Assembly: GCA_964593045.1 (NCBI GenBank)
Contig: CAZQJQ010000002.1
Span: 704 to 57,461, forward strand
Reading direction: 5' to 3'
DNA length: 56,758 nt
Source of the DNA: an uncultured Clostridiaceae bacterium
GTDB taxonomy: Bacteria; Bacillota; Clostridia; TANB77; CAG-465
The position numbers and the translations under genes were made by a program. Shown piece after piece: positions 48,991 to 56,758 of the stretch (position 1 is the stretch's first letter; each line of letters begins with the position of its first letter). Under the pieces are notes generated by a model that did no database searches, was not told where the DNA came from, and worked only from the letters and a program-made list of their open reading frames with translations.

Positions 48991-50631
48991 TTAATTTAAC
49001 TTATCTCTAAGTGTTCTATGATATTTTATTACAAATCTATGAACTTCATCTTGAAGAAATGTTATAAAGTTAAAAAGTTTTTTGTCATCTTCTTCAAATC
49101 TTATTTTATTTCCATATATATCTATAAGTGCATCAGTTTTATGTTTATCATTTTTAATCATACCATACATATCAACAGTTTCTTTTGCCTCTTCTATAAC
49201 AGCTTTTTTAGCAGCATTTAGCTGATTAGTTCCACCATCTATAAATATTAGGTCTGGAAGTGGCCATTCATCTTTGTGTTTCATTCTTCTTGATAATACT
49301 TCATAAATACATAATGGATCATTTTGCTCTAATGTAGATTTTATTTTAAATTTTCTATACATTTTTTTATTCAATTTAGAATCTTCATATCTTATCATGC
49401 AACCGACAATATAATCATTTCTTAAATTAGATATATCATAACATTCTATAGAATTTATATCATATTGCAGTTTTAATTTTTCTCTCAAATCATGCATCAC
49501 ATTATTACTGCTCTCTTCTATGTTTATTCTTATGTTATTTTCAACCATTTCTATTAGTTTTAGTTTTTCACCTTTTTTAGGAACTAAAACTTCAACTTTT
49601 GACTTTTTTATATCTTTTAAATAATCTTTTAAAGAAGTAAGTAATTCCTCTTTTGCTAATTTAATATATATTTTTTTAGGAATATCTTCGTTTTTAAAAT
49701 TTATATAGTATTGTGAAATCACTTGCATTAAAATATCTTCTATTTCTTCTTTATCTACATCATCAATTTTTATATTATCGTTTAATACCACTTTATAATC
49801 ACGTATTTTAAATACTTGGATATGTAGTATATTTAAATAATATACATATCCAAAAACATCTGAATTTGTTTCATTTAAATTAGCAACATTTTGTTTTTTA
49901 CTTATATTTTCTATATCATCTAATCTTTTTTTTAAATTCCCTGCTTTTTCAAAATCTAACTTTTCTATGCACTTATCAATTTCTTGTATTATTTCATTTT
50001 CTATTTCTTTTGTTTTTCCTTGTAAAAACATAATAATTTGTTTTATCATACTTTGATATTGCTCTAAATTAACATCATTTTCACAAGGTCCTAAACATTT
50101 ACCTATATAATAATATAAACATGGCTTTATACTTTTATTTTTTTCCAAGTTATATTTACATCTTTTAAGTGGAAATATTTTTTTTATTAAAGCAAGAACC
50201 TCACGTATTGATGTAACATTTGTATATGGTCCAAAATACATTGAACCATCATCTTTTTTAGTACGAGTAATATATATAGTAGGATATTTTTCTTTTATAG
50301 TAATTTTTATATATGGATATGTTTTGTCATCTTTTAACATAACATTAAATTTAGGACTAAATTCTTTAATGTAGTTACACTCAAGTACTAAAGCTTCTAC
50401 TTCATTTTTCGTAACTATATATGTTATATTATGTACTAATGATACCATTTTTTCAATTCTTTTTGATTTAACATTTTTTTGAAAGTATTGTCTTACCCTT
50501 TTTCTTAAAGAGATTGCTTTACCTACATATATTATATTGTCATTTTCATCTCTCATTTGATATATTCCAGGTTCAAATGGTATTTTAGAAATAATTTTTT
50601 TTAATTTTTCAATTCTTTTTAAATTATCCAT
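48991..50631 (-). CDS. uvrC: excinuclease ABC subunit C, lacking the C-terminal (HhH)2 domain
   Basis: 546 aa. GIY-YIG (GIYQMRDENDNIIYVGKA ... RVRQY), UVR domain (FEKAGNLKKRLDDIENI), RNase H-like endonuclease domain (LIFIDGGTNQL ... KNDKHKT ... LQDEVHRFVIKYHRTLRDK), then a stop where homologs continue with ~55 aa of helix-hairpin-helix. Confidence 0.88.
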   Translation of the reverse strand: MDNLKRIEKLKKIISKIPFEPGIYQMRDENDNIIYVGKAISLRKRVRQYFQKNVKSKRIEKMVSLVHNITYIVTKNEVEALVLECNYIKEFSPKFNVMLKDDKTYPYIKITIKEKYPTIYITRTKKDDGSMYFGPYTNVTSIREVLALIKKIFPLKRCKYNLEKNKSIKPCLYYYIGKCLGPCENDVNLEQYQSMIKQIIMFLQGKTKEIENEIIQEIDKCIEKLDFEKAGNLKKRLDDIENISKKQNVANLNETNSDVFGYVYYLNILHIQVFKIRDYKVVLNDNIKIDDVDKEEIEDILMQVISQYYINFKNEDIPKKIYIKLAKEELLTSLKDYLKDIKKSKVEVLVPKKGEKLKLIEMVENNIRINIEESSNNVMHDLREKLKLQYDINSIECYDISNLRNDYIVGCMIRYEDSKLNKKMYRKFKIKSTLEQNDPLCIYEVLSRRMKHKDEWPLPDLIFIDGGTNQLNAAKKAVIEEAKETVDMYGMIKNDKHKTDALIDIYGNKIRFEEDDKKLFNFITFLQDEVHRFVIKYHRTLRDKLN

Positions 50632-50653
50632 TCTTTTTCTCCATTATATAGCC

Positions 50654-50685
50654 AAAAAGAGGGCATAACCCTCTTTTTGTTTTTT
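50654..50685. terminator. bidirectional intrinsic terminator
   Basis: aaaaagaggg-cataa-ccctcttttt. Lies between spoVG and uvrC. Confidence 0.65.
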
Positions 50686-50690
50686 ACAAA

Positions 50691-50981
50691 TTAATCTTCT
50701 TTGCTTTCTTCCTTGCTATCAACTTGATCATCTGTCTCATTGTATTTAGCAATTATAGCATTTTGGATTGCTTCTCTTGTTTCAGTGTTTATTGGATGAG
50801 CTATATCTTTAAATTCACCATTTGGAGTTTTTCTGCTAGGCATAGCTATAAATAAACCTTTATCACTTTCGATAACTTTTATATCGTGTATTACGAACAC
50901 TTCATCAAAAGTTACAGAAGCAATAGCTTTCATTCTGTTTTGAGAAGCCACTTTTCTAACTCTTACGTCTGTTATTTGCAT
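50691..50981 (-). CDS. spoVG: septation protein SpoVG
   Basis: I place the start at ATG 50981 ([11 protein letters not shown]...). [46 protein letters not shown] is near-invariant SpoVG sequence. Confidence 0.92.
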
Positions 50982-51183
50982 GTTTAACACCGCCTTCCCC
51001 TACTGTATGTCTATATTATACACTAAGCTTTAAATATGTCAATACTTTATTTACAAATTATTTATTTTTTTTGCATTTTATTTTCTTTACATATTTTTAT
51101 GTTTATTTAAATGCCTAAAGTCTATATATTAAGTTAATAAAATCATTCTATATTTACATCATTTTATTTTTTTATTGTTTTAA

Positions 51184-52620
51184 TTAATATTGTCTTGCCG
51201 TATATACCATATGTTTTGCAGGTTTACCACATATAGCACATGTATCTGATATATGTTCTTCTTTAAATGGTATACATCTTATAGTTGATGTAGTCAGTTC
51301 TTTTATTTTATCTTCACATTCTCTACAACCACACCACATAATTTTAACATATCCTTGTTTTTGAGTAAATATATCTTCATATTCTTTTAAATCTTTTGCT
51401 ATATATGTGTGTTCTTCAACGTTTTCTTGTGCCATTTTATACATGTTTTTTTGTATTTCATCAAGTAATTGTAATACTTTATTTTCTAGTTCATCTAAAC
51501 TTACTTCCTGCTTTTCAAAAGTATCTCTTCTAAATAATATGCAATTGTTATTTTCAATATCTTTTGGGCCTATCTCTACTCTTAGTGGTACTCCCTTTAA
51601 CTCCCAGTTGTTAAATTTGTATCCAGGAGAATTATTTTCGTTTATATCCGCTTCTACTCTACACATTTTAGATAATCTAATTTTTAGTTCCTCTACTTTT
51701 TGTAATACCCCTTGTTTATGCTGAGCTATAGGGACAATAATTACTTGTATTGGAGCAATCTTTGGTGGAAGTTTAAGTCCTCTATCATCACCATGTGTCA
51801 TTATAATACCACCGATAAGTCTTGTAGACATTCCCCATGAAGTTTGATATGCATATTCTTCCTTTCCTTCTTTATTTTGGAATTTTATATCAAAAGCCTT
51901 TGCAAAATTATTACCAAAATAGTGTGAAGTTGCTGATTGAAGTGCTTTACCATCATGCATTAATGCTTCAATTGTATATGTTTCTTCCGCACCAGCAAAT
52001 TTTTCTTTTTCAGATTTTCTACCCATTATAACAGGCATAGCTAAATATTCATTACAAAATGTTGCATAAATTTGATGCATTTTTAATGTTTCTTCTTTTG
52101 CTTCTTCAGGTGTCGCATGTAATGTATGCCCTTCTTGCCATAAGAATTCAGATGTCCTTAAAAATGGTCTTGTTGTTTTTTCCCATCTAACTACATTTAC
52201 CCATTGATTTATTAAAAGAGGCAAATCTCTATGTGATTTTATCCATTTTGAATACATTGTACATATCATAGTTTCTGATGTTGGTCTTATACATAATCTT
52301 TCAGGAAGTTCGTTATTACCACCATGAGTTACCCATGCAACTTCTGGAGCAAATCCTTCAACATGTTCTTTCTCTTTATTTAACATTGATTCTGGTATAA
52401 GCATAGGAAAATAGGCATTTTTATGTCCTGTTTCTTTGATCTTTGCATCCATTATTTTTTGTATATTTTCCCATATAGCATAACCATATGGCCTTATTAC
52501 CATAAAACCTTTCATAGGTGCGTAATCCACTAATTCTGCTTTTAATATTATATCTGTATACCATTTTGCAAAATCTTCATCCATTTTTGTTAATTCTTTT
52601 ACAAACTCTTTATTATCCAT
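51184..52620 (-). CDS. proS: proline--tRNA ligase (archaeal/eukaryote-like type with C-terminal Zn-binding domain)
   Basis: 478 aa. No bacterial-type INS editing insertion. Class II motifs (FRTSEFLWQEGHT, TSWGMSTR). C-terminal ...CIPF...C..CGKPA. Confidence 0.92.
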   Translation of the reverse strand: MDNKEFVKELTKMDEDFAKWYTDIILKAELVDYAPMKGFMVIRPYGYAIWENIQKIMDAKIKETGHKNAYFPMLIPESMLNKEKEHVEGFAPEVAWVTHGGNNELPERLCIRPTSETMICTMYSKWIKSHRDLPLLINQWVNVVRWEKTTRPFLRTSEFLWQEGHTLHATPEEAKEETLKMHQIYATFCNEYLAMPVIMGRKSEKEKFAGAEETYTIEALMHDGKALQSATSHYFGNNFAKAFDIKFQNKEGKEEYAYQTSWGMSTRLIGGIIMTHGDDRGLKLPPKIAPIQVIIVPIAQHKQGVLQKVEELKIRLSKMCRVEADINENNSPGYKFNNWELKGVPLRVEIGPKDIENNNCILFRRDTFEKQEVSLDELENKVLQLLDEIQKNMYKMAQENVEEHTYIAKDLKEYEDIFTQKQGYVKIMWCGCRECEDKIKELTTSTIRCIPFKEEHISDTCAICGKPAKHMVYTARQY

Positions 52621-52637
52621 ATTTATTCTTCTCCTCT

Positions 52638-53609
52638 TTACTCAAAACTTATATTTCCTATTTTACCATTTTTTAAGTCATCTAGCAATAGATTTGACAC
52701 TTTATATGTATCAATTTCTCCACCTTTTATTAATGCACCTCTTTTTTGTCCTATTTTCTCAATTATTTTCATTTCTAAAGCATATTTATTATACTCAAGT
52801 TCAGCATTATCTATTTCATTTTTTATACTATCAATATTTTCTATACCATATTTACTACACAACATATTTTTATATTTATCTTTTGAAAGTATTATTTTTA
52901 AACCTTCCACAGCAAGTTCTTCTACATCCAATATATCTTGCTTTATATTTCCTGTAAGAGCGAGCTTAATTCCTGCATCTTTATCATCTAAGTTTGGCCA
53001 TAAAAGTCCTGGTGTATCCATAAGTTCAATATTATCAGAAAGTCTTATCCATTGCTTTTTTCTTGTAACTCCAGGTTTATTTCCAACATTTGCTGAATTT
53101 TTATTTGATAGTTTATTTATAACAGTAGATTTTCCAACATTTGGTATGCCTATTATAACAGCTCTATAAATAGGTTGTATATGAATTTTTGAATTATTCA
53201 CTTTAGATTCATATATTTTTTTACCTATTTTTTTTATACTCTCTAATAATTTAGGAATATTCTCACCTGTTGAAGCATTAGTACAAATAACAGTAATATT
53301 CTGATTTTTAAAATATTCAATCCACTTTTTAAGATTTTCTTCATCTGCTAAATCAAATTTATTTAACACAACTATTCTCTCTTTTCCAACTGCAATTTTT
53401 TCTACAAATGGATTCCTACTTGAATTTGGCAATCTTGCATCAAGTACTTCTATTACTATATCTATTAACTTTATAACAGACTCAATTTCTTTTTTTGCAG
53501 TAACCATATGACCTGGATACCAGTTGATGTTTACTTTGTTAGTATTTTCAGTATTATTTTCCTCTGTTTTATTCTTCTTTCTTTGTTCTCGTTTTTGATA
53601 CATATCCAT
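52638..53609 (-). CDS. rbgA: ribosome biogenesis GTPase A (YlqF)
   Basis: 323 aa. INWYPGHM; circularly permuted G motifs NKFDL (G4), GIPNVGKST (G1), DTPG (G3). Its SD and first ~30 codons appear to be supplied by the adjacent cassette (see findings). Confidence 0.9.
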   Translation of the reverse strand: MDMYQKREQRKKNKTEENNTENTNKVNINWYPGHMVTAKKEIESVIKLIDIVIEVLDARLPNSSRNPFVEKIAVGKERIVVLNKFDLADEENLKKWIEYFKNQNITVICTNASTGENIPKLLESIKKIGKKIYESKVNNSKIHIQPIYRAVIIGIPNVGKSTVINKLSNKNSANVGNKPGVTRKKQWIRLSDNIELMDTPGLLWPNLDDKDAGIKLALTGNIKQDILDVEELAVEGLKIILSKDKYKNMLCSKYGIENIDSIKNEIDNAELEYNKYALEMKIIEKIGQKRGALIKGGEIDTYKVSNLLLDDLKNGKIGNISFE

Positions 53610-53625
53610 TATTTATCACTTCCTT
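53517..53625. repeat. copy A of the rbgA 5' module (SD, start codon, first ~30 codons, ending at core ATACCAGTT)
   Basis: Homologous to 55070-55175. Identical 9-mer ATACCAGTT (53517-53525 = 55070-55078). Identical 18-mer tttttgatacatatccat (53592-53609 = 55142-55159). Similar SD region. Indels in between. Confidence 0.8.
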
Positions 53626-53924
53626 TTATTTCTTAATCTATCTATCATTTTTAGTATAAAAATGATAATTCCATATATAAGCCAAATTACTATGTCTATC
53701 AATATACTATAGAATATAATTACAATACCTAATATTTTTGAACCAAAAAACACCCCTAATTCTGCCATTCCAGAAAAATCTGTTCCATCAACATATATAT
53801 TATTTGTATTGCTATTATTTACTAACTCATTTGATACATTTATCCCTGATATTATTCCTAAAATTAAGATAATAATAGAAATAAGTATCAATATTTTTTT
53901 TACAACCTTTTTATTAATCTTCAT
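53616..53924 (-). CDS. small 3-TM membrane protein (hypothetical)
   Basis: 102 aa. TM segments around residues 11-27, 56-76 and 77-92. Its start overlaps the RhuM-family gene end by 11 nt, and its stop lies inside the rbgA SD region. Confidence 0.55.
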   Translation of the reverse strand: MKINKKVVKKILILISIIILILGIISGINVSNELVNNSNTNNIYVDGTDFSGMAELGVFFGSKILGIVIIFYSILIDIVIWLIYGIIIFILKMIDRLRNKRK

Positions 53925-54918
53925 ATTTATTTTCTCCTAAATATTTTTTGTAAAATTCATCCATTGAAGAAATATATTTTTGATCTTGTATAATTCTAAA
54001 TTTTTCATATTCTTTTTCTGCTTTTTCTACTGCTTCTTTATGAGATATACTGCCACTATTATTTAATACTTCTTTTCTTCTAAATTTTAATAAATCATCA
54101 GTTGCATTTATCCAATCCTTCATTGTCATAACATGTCTTTGTTTTGCTTCATCTTCAGCAAATACTAAAAACATATTTGTTAAATCTTTTAAATTATTCA
54201 TTTCTTCTTCGTTTAAATAATTTTTTGCAATAATCACATCATATTTATATATTAAACCATCAGGAGAATTTTTCCAATTAGTTAGTCCCATATGTTCTTT
54301 ATCTGAGTTTGCTCTACTATATATTAATTCGGCTGCAGTATGTCCGCTTATAGCATAATGCAACTTATTTTGAACAATTTTAAAGAAAGCATACGCTTCT
54401 TCTGACTTCGGATTGTAATCAGTTGCTGTAGCAATAAATAAATCAGTGATTTTTTGGTATGCCATTCTCTCGCTAACTCTAATTGTTTTGATACGTTCTA
54501 ATAATTCATCAAAATATTTCGTATCATATTTATTTCCATTTATAAAACGTTCATCATTTAATGCAAAACCCTTTGTCATATATTCTTTTAATATTTTTGT
54601 AGCCCATATTCTAAATTCTGTTGCTTTTTTCGAATTAACTCTATAACCCACGGCAATTATGGCATCTAAACTATAAATAGTTGTATTATAGTTTTTCCCG
54701 TCATCGGCAGTTAACGAGCATTTCTCGGTAACTGATTTTTTCTCTAACTCTTTGTCTTCAAATATATGTTTCAAGTGTAAACTTATATTATCTGTAGAAC
54801 ATTCAAAAACTTTTGACATTCCTTTTTGTGATAACCATAAAGTTTCATCTTTATAAATAGCATCTACTATAATATTTCCTTCACTATTTTTATATATAAT
54901 TAATTTATTATCTTCCAT
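53914..54918 (-). CDS. RhuM-family protein (virulence-protein-RhuM-like, function unknown)
   Basis: I place the start at ATG 54918 (MEDNKLIIYKN...) with AAAGGAGAG SD. ETLWLSQKGMSKVF...ISLHLKHIFEDKEL ... YSLDAIIAVGYRVNSKKATEFRIWATKILKEYMTKGF matches the RhuM-family core as I remember it. Confidence 0.75.
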   Translation of the reverse strand: MEDNKLIIYKNSEGNIIVDAIYKDETLWLSQKGMSKVFECSTDNISLHLKHIFEDKELEKKSVTEKCSLTADDGKNYNTTIYSLDAIIAVGYRVNSKKATEFRIWATKILKEYMTKGFALNDERFINGNKYDTKYFDELLERIKTIRVSERMAYQKITDLFIATATDYNPKSEEAYAFFKIVQNKLHYAISGHTAAELIYSRANSDKEHMGLTNWKNSPDGLIYKYDVIIAKNYLNEEEMNNLKDLTNMFLVFAEDEAKQRHVMTMKDWINATDDLLKFRRKEVLNNSGSISHKEAVEKAEKEYEKFRIIQDQKYISSMDEFYKKYLGENKYED

Positions 54919-55033
54919 CAATACTCTCCTTTCCTTTAGTTTTTCATAAGTCATACACTTATCAATTTAAATTAAAATTTTATTAAAAAATGTTCCAAAA
55001 TGTAAAAAGCATTTAGTAAAAATTCTTTTATTT

Positions 55034-55159
55034 TCAAGGATTTAATAGTGTTTTTTCATAACTCCCCACATACCAGTTTATCGACACGGATGTACAACTT
55101 TTATTTTTACCTTCTTCTTTATCTTTTTTTCTTTGCTCTCTTTTTTGATACATATCCAT
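55034..55159 (-). pseudogene. displaced 5' fragment of rbgA
   Basis: MDMYQKREQRKKDKEEGKNKSCTSVSINWY, then unrelated VGSYEKTLLNP and a stop. The first 12 residues are identical to intact RbgA, homology ends exactly after N-W-Y, and it has its own AGAAGGAG SD. Confidence 0.75.
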
Positions 55160-55175
55160 AATTAATCACTCCTTC
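55070..55175. repeat. copy B of the rbgA 5' module
   Basis: See copy A. The sequence on the low-coordinate side of the 9-mer core is unrelated between the two copies. Confidence 0.8.
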
Positions 55176-55209
55176 TCTAATTATTTGAATCTTTTATTAT
55201 TATAACATA

Positions 55210-56433
55210 CTATATTTCTGTTTTAAATTTTGTTTCTATATCTCCATTTTCATAAATATAAATCACATCAACTAGTTCATTTAAAATATTCCTACTTAAG
55301 GTGAAACTATTATTATATTTTTTATTAATTTCATTTAATACTAATTCTTGGAGTTTGTTTTTATTAATTGAATGTTTAGTACAATTTTTATTTCTATTAT
55401 AGTTACTGCAATAATAATATATTTTATCTTTGCTTTTCTTAATTACAAATGAACTATCACAATCAGGACATTTCAAAAATCCAGAAAATAAATCAATTTC
55501 ATTATTTTTATTTATTTTACCAGTTTTTTTAATTATTTCTTGTACCTGTTGAAATTGTTCTTTGCTAATTAATGCTTCATGATGATTAGGAGTTATTATC
55601 CAGTCTTCTTTATCAACATCAATTAATTTATTACTTCTATAATTTAATTTTCTTTTTACTCCTTGAACTAAATCACCTGTATAAGTTTGATTATTTAATA
55701 TCCTGTTAATCATTTCTGAATTCCATTTATACATCGAATCAATTATTTTATTATTTGCAAGAGATTCTTGAACTTTATAAACAGCAGGTGGTAATTCTTT
55801 TTTATTATTTAATTTTTCTGCTACTTCTTTTTTACTTTTTCCCAATAGAATCATTTTAAATATCTTTTTTACTACTCTTGAAGCAGCTATATCAATAATA
55901 AACTTATGCTTATCATTAGGATCTTTTAAATACCCATACGGTGCTGAAACTCCAATAAATTGTCCATTTAGTTTTTTAGTTTTTAATGCTGACCTTACTT
56001 TCCTAGAAATATCTTTTGAATAAAAATCATTAGTAACATTTTTAAGTTGAATTGTATCTTCCATATAATATGAACTGTTTTCACTATCAATATTATCATT
56101 TATTGATATAGATCTAACTTTTAATATCGGAAAGATATCTTCAATATAATTTCCGACTGATATATAATTCCTTCCAAATCTAGATAAATCTTTAACGATT
56201 ATCGTATTTATTTTTTTATCTTTTATATCACTTAGTAATTTTTTAAATCCAGGCCTATTAAAATTAGTTCCAGTGTAACCATCATCTATATAATAATCTA
56301 TTAATTTAAAATCAGTTTTTGTTTTGATATAAAATTTTATTATATTTTTTTGATTAACAATACTATTTGATTCTTCAATACTATTTTCATCTTTTGATAA
56401 ACGCAGATATGCGGCTACTTTATAAATGAACAA
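55210..56433 (-). CDS. large serine recombinase (resolvase/invertase N-domain, recombinase domain, zinc ribbon)
   Basis: 407 aa. VAAYLRLSKDE (catalytic Ser context), DDGYTGTNFNRPGF, IIVKDLSRFGRN, C-terminal CPDCDSSF...YYYCSNY...C zinc-ribbon-like motif. Confidence 0.85.
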   Translation of the reverse strand: MFIYKVAAYLRLSKDENSIEESNSIVNQKNIIKFYIKTKTDFKLIDYYIDDGYTGTNFNRPGFKKLLSDIKDKKINTIIVKDLSRFGRNYISVGNYIEDIFPILKVRSISINDNIDSENSSYYMEDTIQLKNVTNDFYSKDISRKVRSALKTKKLNGQFIGVSAPYGYLKDPNDKHKFIIDIAASRVVKKIFKMILLGKSKKEVAEKLNNKKELPPAVYKVQESLANNKIIDSMYKWNSEMINRILNNQTYTGDLVQGVKRKLNYRSNKLIDVDKEDWIITPNHHEALISKEQFQQVQEIIKKTGKINKNNEIDLFSGFLKCPDCDSSFVIKKSKDKIYYYCSNYNRNKNCTKHSINKNKLQELVLNEINKKYNNSFTLSRNILNELVDVIYIYENGDIETKFKTEI

Positions 56434-56446
56434 ACAATCACTTCTT

Positions 56447-56758
56447 TTATATTATTAAAGCAATTTTATAACTCAATCTAAACTTATATTTTATTTTTTT
56501 TTGAAATTTTTTTATTATAAAATTTAAATAAATATCTTGATTCCTATTCAAAATTTCATATTCATCAGCACTCAATACATTATAAAATCCATAATGTATA
56601 TTATCCCTACATTTTCTATTAATTACATAAAATTTTTCATTTATTTCTTTTGGTAATTCTTTAAATATATTTTCTAAAAATAAAATATTATTATTTTTTT
56701 TATCATTCCATAACAATTCAATTACAGTGGCCTTTGCTTTTGATAAAAATTTATTAAA
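56447..56758 (-). CDS. hypothetical protein, 5'-partial (ORF open to the window end)
   Basis: The frame has no stop from 56758 down to 56447; the track starts it at a TTG. It ends 13 nt before the recombinase ATG. No recognised family. Confidence 0.4.
   Translation of the reverse strand, partial: FNKFLSKAKATVIELLWNDKKNNNILFLENIFKELPKEINEKFYVINRKCRDNIHYGFYNVLSADEYEILNRNQDIYLNFIIKKFQKKIKYKFRLSYKIALII

Follow-up and report, generated by a model that had tools for sequence, protein, structure and literature searches.

Probable tandem accretion of small serine-recombinase units at the 5′ end of rbgA in an uncultured Clostridiaceae bacterium

The start of rbgA, the gene of an essential ribosome-assembly GTPase, is already known as a target of mobile DNA through the streptococcal element Tn5253, and it is the occupation of this same gene start by much smaller units, one of them carrying a large serine recombinase (LSR), that is described here for a stretch of 56,758 nucleotides from an uncultured Clostridiaceae bacterium (contig CAZQJQ010000002.1). 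This whole stretch is called the window, and coordinates refer to positions within it. For Tn5253, the attB site has its end in the initial 17-20 nt of the rbgA coding sequence (CDS), with integration taking place downstream of a conserved 11-bp core (PMC8571831), and the element-borne attTn sequence restores the rbgA CDS and can alter the protein's N-terminus (PMC8571831; PMC4701971). Integration at the rbgA 5′ end by integrative and conjugative elements (ICEs) of the Tn5253/Tn5252 type was assigned to a tyrosine integrase (PMC4701971). The likeness with our locus lies in the target gene, in the use of its 5′ end and in a CDS restored by element sequence. Presumably, the Tn5253 core would fall at the I-Q-W-F codons of the pneumococcal RbgA N-terminus, which is probably the same W-codon neighbourhood as the core in the window. 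However, the streptococcal ICEs are large, conjugative and accompanied by duplications of 17-84 bp, whereas here we find a serine recombinase of ~406 aa, units of 0.6-4.5 kb, a core of at most 6 nt and a leader that adds about 27 residues. No tyrosine integrase was found in the window region or in the complete elements of loci L126 and L077 (L-numbers are labels of comparison loci or contigs from other genomes, and P-numbers those of proteins).

The accretion in tandem of ICEs and cis-mobilisable elements (CIMEs), including CIMEs lacking a recombinase, is an established model for ICESt1/ICESt3 of Streptococcus thermophilus and for integrative and mobilisable elements, and its scenario of decay followed by accretion would be the same as for our locus (PMC5704250). 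Those cases differ in their tyrosine integrases, in their targets (gene 3′ ends or tRNAs) and in the conjugative nature of the elements, and cis-mobilisation has been shown for CIME-ICE. In the same line, the ssrA islands of Dehalococcoides form a tandem series behind a single-copy gene that is essential, with a short repeat of the end of this gene at the boundaries of every island, and their integrase is CcrB-like and of the serine type, some islands without an integration module being proposed as cis-mobilisable (PMC3146451). Their target is however the 3′ end of a tmRNA gene, their size is 10-30 kb and their integration module comprises six genes. Among serine recombinases, CcrAB and CcrC insert the cassettes of SCCmec composites (staphylococcal cassette chromosomes, SCC) into the end of rlmH/orfX with the reading frame preserved; the integration site is regenerated, which leads to tandem stacking, and cassettes without ccr genes (ACME, psi-SCC) rely on the recombinases of their neighbours. 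Unlike the units in the window, SCC elements use the 3′ end of the target and either two-protein or ~560-aa recombinases, and the LSR of the window is not an equivalog of CcrA, CcrB or CcrC (NCBIfam scores of 70.8-83.3 bits against cut-offs of 700-900). Its catalytic domain is closest among solved structures to that of TnpX from Tn4451 (2mhc, E 4.6e-29), and genes annotated as TndX were matched at 37.5% identity. The large resolvases TnpX and TndX (Tn4451/Tn5397) catalyse insertion and excision without a separate directionality factor, and a similar bidirectionality would suit an array that gains and loses units, but they differ in length (533-707 aa), in their GA crossover sites, in the resistance transposons that carry them and in target specificity. 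Nor is the locus an integron, because the recombinase is of the serine type and not an IntI tyrosine integrase, and the cassette boundaries are the junctions described below and not attC sites. In the literature on rbgA/ylqF with a serine recombinase or attB, and on RhuM with a serine recombinase, we found no description of such elements. Altogether, tandem accretion with non-autonomous units and the rbgA 5′ end as the target of Tn5253 were already known, and what is new is the class of enzyme acting at the rbgA site, the very small size of the units, the long mobile leader of RbgA and the breadth of the phenomenon among gut Firmicutes.

The region upstream of rbgA in the window is, in all likelihood, an array of two units produced by site-specific integration at an LSR attachment site lying in the sequence AACTGG. 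We take it as a case of site-specific accretion in tandem in which one unit is CIME-like and has no recombinase. Along the minus strand, the order of the parts is an open reading frame (ORF) still open at the window end, the LSR gene, a first module (B), a RhuM-family gene with a membrane ORF, a second module (A) and the rbgA body. Each unit of this element family has at its left end an arm (P′) resembling the first ~25 nt of the rbgA body and, at its right end, a portable module made of a Shine-Dalgarno sequence (SD), an ATG and a leader of 10-30 codons ending in INW. Integration would displace the previous gene start and fuse the unit's own leader in frame, so that the essential rbgA stays expressed, and, as the new junction of module and body again resembles the target, further units could insert between the resident module and the body. 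The outer unit, from 55073 to beyond 56758, is the one with the apparently intact LSR. The inner unit (53520-55072), which has the RhuM gene and the membrane protein and no recombinase, probably arrived last because it is adjacent to the rbgA body.

The intact rbgA ORF (52638-53609, minus strand), whose start reads MDMYQKREQRKKNKTEENNTENTNKVNINWYPGHM, joins two parts of different origin. The host part, or rbgA body, runs from the Y codon of the WYPGHM motif to the stop (52638..53519, minus strand; TIGR03596 GTPase_YlqF, 3.2e-92) and represents the B′ side of the junction, the YlqF model beginning at residue 28 of the ORF. Module A (53520..53628, minus strand; profile match E 5e-11), with SD AAGGAAGTG and leader MDMYQKREQRKKNKTEENNTENTNKVNINW, is fused in frame with this body, provides the present start of rbgA and constitutes the right end (P arm) of the inner unit. 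The point of fusion is core A, the AACTGG of the N-W codons (53520..53525, minus strand). Module B (55073..55182, minus strand; E 4.5e-13) has its own SD and the leader MDMYQKREQRKKDKEEGKNKSCTSVSINW, ends at a second AACTGG (core B, 55073-55078) and at present runs into the inner unit's P′ arm in an attL-type junction, while being itself the right end of the outer, recombinase-bearing unit. The second SD and ORF that a preliminary description of this DNA had placed upstream of the intact rbgA, and which we also find (55034-55159, minus strand), is a 41-aa reading frame that begins MDMYQKREQRKKDKEEGKNKSCTSVSINWY and continues as VGSYEKTLLNP before its stop.

Each module thus comprises an SD and MDMYQKR... 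with about 29 codons, ending at the AACTGG of the WYPGHM motif. In a search for repeats the two modules were the top-ranked direct repeat of the region (69 nt, 81%, spacing 1550), and in a pairwise alignment their homology extends from the SD through ATGGATATGTATCAAAAA... to AACTGGTAT and then gives way to total divergence (CCAGGTCATATGG against GTGGGGAGTTATG), just as the preliminary description had it for the low-coordinate side of a shared 9-mer. The identical 18-mer that it reported across the start codon is also exact (53592-53609 = 55142-55159). The 9-mer itself, ATACCAGTT, is an exact match between 53517-53525 and 55070-55078, with one further occurrence in the whole window, but it overstates the core, since what the family shares is only AACTGG or less (53520-53525 and 55073-55078) and the additional TAT appears to reflect the similarity between the P′ arm and the rbgA body. 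Two similar copies in direct orientation 1550 bp apart would be expected if the rbgA 5′ region had simply been duplicated locally in tandem, with unrelated DNA caught in between. We give this origin practically no credit: the homology stops abruptly at the core, the two copies show no more than about 77-81% identity, the DNA that separates them recurs with the same ends in other species (88-94% nucleotide identity for the P′ arm plus RhuM part), the modules are horizontally mobile and the nearest relative has no leader at all. In this regard, the interpretation of the modules as two diverged copies of the rbgA start holds for their homology to each other but not for their origin, since the data below identify them as mobile leaders.

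Homologues of RbgA fall into a group with a short start (MNINWYPGHM, about 286 aa) and a patchy set with an additional leader of the type MDMYQKR[EK].R... A scan of species-representative genomes with the pattern MDMYQKR[EK] gave at least 119 matching stretches, all of which, among the matches listed, come from gut metagenome-assembled genomes (MAGs) labelled Clostridia, Bacilli, Tenericutes or similar, and the pattern was also present in 6 stretches of viral contigs. In more than 100 gut Firmicutes MAGs, near-identical leaders are joined to rbgA bodies that are only about 68% identical. This decoupling can be put in numbers: in 184 of the 194 pairs of loci with modules at least 93% identical, the rbgA bodies (measured over their first 750 nt) are less than 75% identical, and the median body identity of these pairs, 68.5%, equals the value for all pairs (r=0.17). 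The sequences therefore speak for modules that are leaders borne by elements rather than duplicates of the host rbgA start. The nearest relatives of the window have RbgA proteins about 60% identical to its own (60% is also the best match in protein databases), and the closest one, L208 (RbgA 60%, ProS 77%, same rbgA-proS order), keeps the unoccupied site ...aggaatataaataaATGAATATAAATTGGTATCCAGGTCATATGG with a plain MNINWYPGHM start, which supplies the empty site that the preliminary description had proposed to look for in related genomes.

These same data bear on the idea that RbgA of this clade inherited the MDMYQKR leader from its ancestors as an N-terminal extension, with elements having captured copies of it and the copy at rbgA being native. 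The extension is indeed found in many called RbgA proteins, but it is patchy among close RbgA relatives, a single leader occurs on unrelated bodies, and different leaders sit on rbgA genes that are 97.5% (L066/L147) and about 98% (L068/L131) identical; with a YlqF model that begins at residue 28 and a nearest relative that starts at MNINWYPGHM, we find an ancestral leader very improbable. On the contrary, even some of the short N-termini in the databases may be of mobile origin: the native-looking starts MNENKTNINW, MNEEKSFPKTTINW and MSEEKSFPKTSINW also belong to element-borne modules with a GGAAGTGAT-type SD (positions 10571-11535 of L131, 5700-5760 of L126 and, in reverse complement, 4222-4263 of L077). 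Another peculiarity of the leaders concerns at least 8 independent loci from different projects (among them L001/L006/L017, L029, L032, L064, L069, L109, with TTT CCC C GGA, and L112, at the junction + 7 nt), in which an extra C just past the junction (TGG TAT CCA C GGA CAT ATG) shifts the leader out of the frame of the rbgA body, whose 290 aa are intact in other respects. In these cases RbgA would either begin at the M of GHM, without WYPGH, or be reached by a +1 frameshift at the rare CGG codon. Called proteins beginning at that M were also considered as disrupted genes, an explanation that was rejected for P0035, where the start is a gene-calling choice and the gene is intact and unoccupied.

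The module profile, run over all fetched DNA, gave 171 matches, of which 83 enter rbgA in frame and 8 enter it with the extra C. In 77 matches the sequence beyond the module is not rbgA; the majority of these run into recurring families of P′ arms right after the W codon, a minority being mis-registered or partial. More than 160 module junctions in other genomes, into either the rbgA body or P′ arms, share one break position, the same as in the window, and the attachment core that had been placed within rbgA at the N-W codons is thereby sustained. The left end of the inner unit (54969..55072, minus strand) is a P′ arm of family F1 (TATGTGGGGAGTTATGAAAAAAC...) followed by a spacer of ~60 nt; arms of this type (e.g., TAAGTGGGGAGTTATGAAAAAAC) lie behind module cores in L004, L017, L079, L108, L110, L111, L116, L137 and others, and other families are exemplified by TAAAGAACGACTTATATAAAC, TATAAACCGACTTATGGAAAAC and TTGATTACGATTTATTTAACC. 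The P′ arms have ...CGAnTTATnnAAAA... in common, and the rbgA body has a similar stretch (GGnCATATGGCnAAAAC) at almost the same offset, so that the attachment site of the element has the look of an rbgA 5′ end that was copied and has since decayed. Core variants with a different base after the TG (AACTGA, AACTGC, AACTGT) would place the crossover at or before the TG of TGG. No convincing dyad symmetry was seen by eye in the position profiles of the left and right arms.

Complete elements of 3.9 kb in other genomes show how the parts belong together. Their order is a displaced 5′ fragment, a P′ arm, cargo, an LSR, and an SD with leader that enters rbgA. In L126, rplS and lepB are followed by the SD ATGGATAATGAAAATAAAACACATATCAACTGG and GTAAGTTGTATTTATGGAAAACC..., where the displaced fragment MDNENKTHINW runs into the P′ arm; the remainder comprises a Bro-N protein, a 417-aa protein, the LSR and the SD ATGAATGAAGAAAAAAGTTTTCCTAAGACGACGATTAACTGG, with TACCCTGGGCACATGGCC... 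leading into rbgA through the leader MNEEKSFPKTTINW joined to YPGHM. This element measures about 3.9 kb and its two ends share AACTGG only. L077 follows a plan like that of L126, here behind a resident MDMYQKR module. Together with the independence of module and body identities, both elements bear out the proposal that an incoming element brings its own SD and leader. The ends of elements have in common a very short core and nothing else: AACTGG in L126, AACTG(G) in L131/L068 and AACTGGTAT in the window. The LSRs of L126 (63% identity) and L077 (57.5%) are the closest to that of the window among those adjacent to rbgA, and in both complete elements the LSR is the sole recombinase, observations from which this LSR family can be inferred to catalyse the integrations at rbgA. 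One homologue (P0127, in L127) is not adjacent to rbgA, and not every member of the family targets this site.

The LSR of the window (407 aa, apparently intact; 55210..56433, minus strand) is a member of an unusually short LSR family (about 406 aa) that runs into thousands of proteins. It combines a resolvase-type catalytic domain with serine nucleophile (PF00239, 1.2e-20, residues 6-158; motif AAYLRLSKDE), a Recombinase domain (PF07508, 3.5e-21) and a zinc ribbon (Zn_ribbon_recom, PF13408, 4.3e-16), with four invariant cysteines at 322, 325, 342 and 351. In Foldseek searches, its model matched complexes of serine integrases with DNA (E down to 3.5e-19). Judging from the AlphaFold model (pLDDT 78), in which only helices 358-373 and 381-387 follow the zinc ribbon before the protein ends at 407, the enzyme is predicted to lack the long coiled-coil in the zinc ribbon, a motif that governs synapsis and direction, and this absence would agree with a directionality looser than that of phage integrases. 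In phage and plasmid collections, matches to the LSR reached at most 43% identity, no DNA match to a module plus P′ arm was obtained and no vehicle was identified. The phage-collection matches (H1-H10, MT837953.1 and others) are 4-8 kb records named 'Bacteriophage sp.', without annotation and originating from viromes of human faeces; they encode distant relatives (35-43%) of the LSR and might be small excised LSR elements. Also in relation to this enzyme, two full-length LSR genes stand in tandem directly upstream of a module-rbgA junction at positions 2849-5639 of L002 and 537-3384 of L074.

Accretion at this position can be followed as a natural polymorphism. Contigs L068, L131 and L134 have rbgA genes 98-99% identical to each other. 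In L068 the start reads ...KSFPSVGINW followed by YPGHM, and L131 equals L068 plus an LSR-less unit of 965 bp (two small ORFs, one of them helix-turn-helix-like) inserted at ...AACTG: the resident L068 module is followed by TTGATTACG..., and the unit ends with aaggaagtgattttATGAACGAAAATAAAACAAACATCAACTGG before TACCCTGG... The flanks of this pair are 97.8-98.2% identical and AACTG(G) is the only repeat, while L134 has a different array that includes the RhuM unit. Similarly, L147 equals L066 plus a unit of 2218 bp placed right after the ATCAACTGG of the resident module. With flanks 97-99% identical in both same-species pairs, these cases indicate that the point at which new units come in, or go out, is exactly the boundary of resident module and rbgA body, and the geometry of the window matches that of both insertions. 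Moreover, at least 12 genomes have two or three modules arrayed within 8 kb, and the succession of integrations at one core, as originally proposed for the window, is thus well founded. Unit sizes range from 0.6 to 4.5 kb, and 42 of the 45 ORFs of at least 100 aa in 22 units are co-oriented with rbgA.

A different route to the same arrays would be the exchange of cassettes by homologous recombination after DNA uptake, with the 5′ parts of the modules and RhuM paralogues as arms and without participation of the recombinase. Over their first ~38 nt the modules hardly vary within the family, and RhuM units carry different modules at different loci, with one chimeric RhuM, which implies recombination among units; these features would provide such exchange with its substrates. 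Nevertheless, the insertions in the same-species pairs are bounded by AACTG(G) only, the left partners of the minimal RhuM unit include non-module sequence (L094 and the relic in the window) and the homology always stops at one nucleotide position, so that we hold homologous exchange to be improbable, if clearly less so than an ancestral leader. On the conserved part itself, it may be added that the SD and first ~8 codons (GGAAGTGAT..ATGGATATGTATCAAAAAAGAAAA; 53586-53625 and 55136-55175, minus strand, in the window) are nearly invariant across modules even at synonymous sites, in contrast to the hypervariable, indel-rich middle of the leader, and that this nearly invariant part lies 60-100 nt from the crossover, i.e., beyond the usual site of an LSR.

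The inner unit is flanked by attL- and attR-type sites, where module B meets the P′ arm (55073) and module A meets the rbgA body (53520), and between them it holds only two genes, neither of them for recombination or transfer. The first is the RhuM gene (53914..54954, minus strand; Pfam Virulence_RhuM 2.8e-98), which probably starts at the ATG 54916-54918 (MEDNKL...) behind the SD AAAGGAAAGGAG and, from its match to PADLOC PDC-S05 (3.4e-130), is a candidate anti-phage defence gene. The second encodes a predicted membrane protein of 102 aa without family match (53616..53924, minus strand), has an overlap of 11 nt with the RhuM stop and terminates 6 nt short of the rbgA ATG. Copies 89-96% identical to this RhuM exist in more than 12 other genomes and metagenome contigs. 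At the DNA level, the P′ arm plus RhuM part (55081 to ~53906) recurs with 88-94% nucleotide identity in at least 12 species-level genomes (L009, L030, L048, L079, L096, L110, L111, L116, L094, L125, L099, L086), where rbgA is about 70% identical, and in more than 20 metagenome contigs. Bounded RhuM units measure 1251-1261 bp in L116, L111 and L137, and the 1553 bp of the window unit are due to the additional membrane ORF, which is absent from those three, as from all other RhuM units, and has its sole homologue in L124 (61% over 54 aa).

The preliminary description was right about the two genes and the missing recombinase of the inner unit; it is not a single unit, however, as a further, relic junction lies inside (~54930..54968, minus strand), where AAATTG is followed by ATAAGTGTATGACTTATGAAAAAC, a decayed core with the P′ arm of a minimal RhuM unit. 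The inner unit is in fact a composite of a gene-less mini-unit of ~110 bp, from the first P′ arm to the relic junction, and the minimal RhuM unit. This composite is conserved in L009, L030, L048, L079, L110, L111 and L116. In the window, as in about eight other loci, the P′ arm of the relic is preceded by the gene-less piece of ~110 bp; in L096 and L086 it comes immediately behind a resident module's TGG, and in L094 behind a native-like 5′ fragment, at least 4 different left neighbours being known in total for the minimal RhuM unit at one core position. No LSR remnant is found between its P′ arm and RhuM, while related families do show series of LSR deletions. One of these families, observed in L013, L020, L004/L017, L147, L140 and L025 at about 99% nucleotide identity across hosts, has the order P′ arm TAAAGAACGACTTATATAAAC, a uracil-DNA-glycosylase-like gene, LSR, RhuM1 and module.

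Several findings weigh against an active inner unit and, in part, against a simple reading of the array. Intact LSRs are found in none of the 22 units bounded by two junctions and in only 2 of the 35 module-rbgA junctions with 3 kb of upstream sequence; in the family with the glycosylase-like gene, the LSR is intact in L013 and carries differing internal deletions elsewhere. The absence of intact LSRs from bounded units and these independent deletions indicate that recombinase-less units often arise by decay in place. Both modules of the window are divergent, with profile scores at the 18th percentile of the family for B and at the 4th for A, and module A lacks the AAAAGTT motif common in left arms; on account of this low score and missing motif the inner unit may be fixed, and it may well be so now. 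Moreover, the outer unit has its far end beyond the window. A rival explanation is that the inner unit is dead, what remains of an autonomous element that integrated beside rbgA and lost its recombinase and most of its cargo in place; it would never have moved, nor be able to move, without a recombinase of its own, and would be kept because its module is the sole start of rbgA and RhuM is useful. The missing intact LSRs, the frequency of LSR fragments, the differing LSR deletions in different hosts of the nearly identical element (its P′ arm being of family F2) and the strong divergence of module A are all in its favour. What such decay does not easily account for is the presence of the same RhuM unit, its ends included, in at least 12 species-level genomes, without any LSR remnant between P′ arm and RhuM and next to at least 4 left partners at one core position, since independent deletions would yield different end points. 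We thus regard the dead remnant as a serious contender that nonetheless falls short of being probable.

A one-gene RhuM unit with so many left partners in many hosts is, from these comparisons, best explained by site-specific insertion with the recombinase acting in trans. Mobilisation in trans is plausible for the inner unit of the window too, and we lean slightly towards its having been inserted by an LSR supplied in this manner. That it can still move in this genome appears doubtful. Since RhuM, the membrane ORF and rbgA overlap or abut, transcription of rbgA most likely passes through the cassettes, with translation from the leader of the last one, a dependence that would also stabilise the cassette. 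As a tentative and rather speculative extension, the rbgA 5′ end could be, in many gut Firmicutes, an integron-like platform of short (~406 aa), coiled-coil-less serine recombinases, with recombinase-less units, the RhuM (PDC-S05) cassette among them, mobilised in trans. Units of 0.6-4.5 kb would then be inserted, lost and exchanged at one crossover beside the gene body, and the array would offer a hitch-hiking site for defence-type genes, held in place by the need of rbgA for the last leader.

In any case, the locus represents a previously undocumented and apparently widespread family (at least 119 stretches) of very small serine-recombinase elements in the start of an essential gene, which rewrite the N-terminus of RbgA with a mobile leader, and many annotated RbgA N-termini in gut MAGs are mosaic and of mobile origin. 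The family also provides natural att sites, with both arms and with empty and occupied alleles, for a compact group of LSRs without the usual coiled-coil, which are of interest for the control of directionality and for genome-engineering toolkits, and the rbgA 5′ region emerges as a hotspot where RhuM-type defence candidates accumulate.

With regard to the remaining features of the region, an Rfam scan of 50000-56758 gave no match, and a look for terminator-like sites over 53400-56758 was negative; two sites that resemble promoters (55227-55199 and 55006-54977, minus strand) are of a kind no commoner than in shuffled sequence and are hints only. The stop of the LSR gene lies ~28 nt upstream of module B (55182). 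On the other side of this gene, 56447..56758 (minus strand) encodes the C-terminal part of an ORF without family match, unrelated to the 417-aa protein at the corresponding position of L126 and open to the window end, from which it follows that the outer unit extends beyond 56758. On the 3′ side of the rbgA body, the array is followed by proS, spoVG and uvrC.

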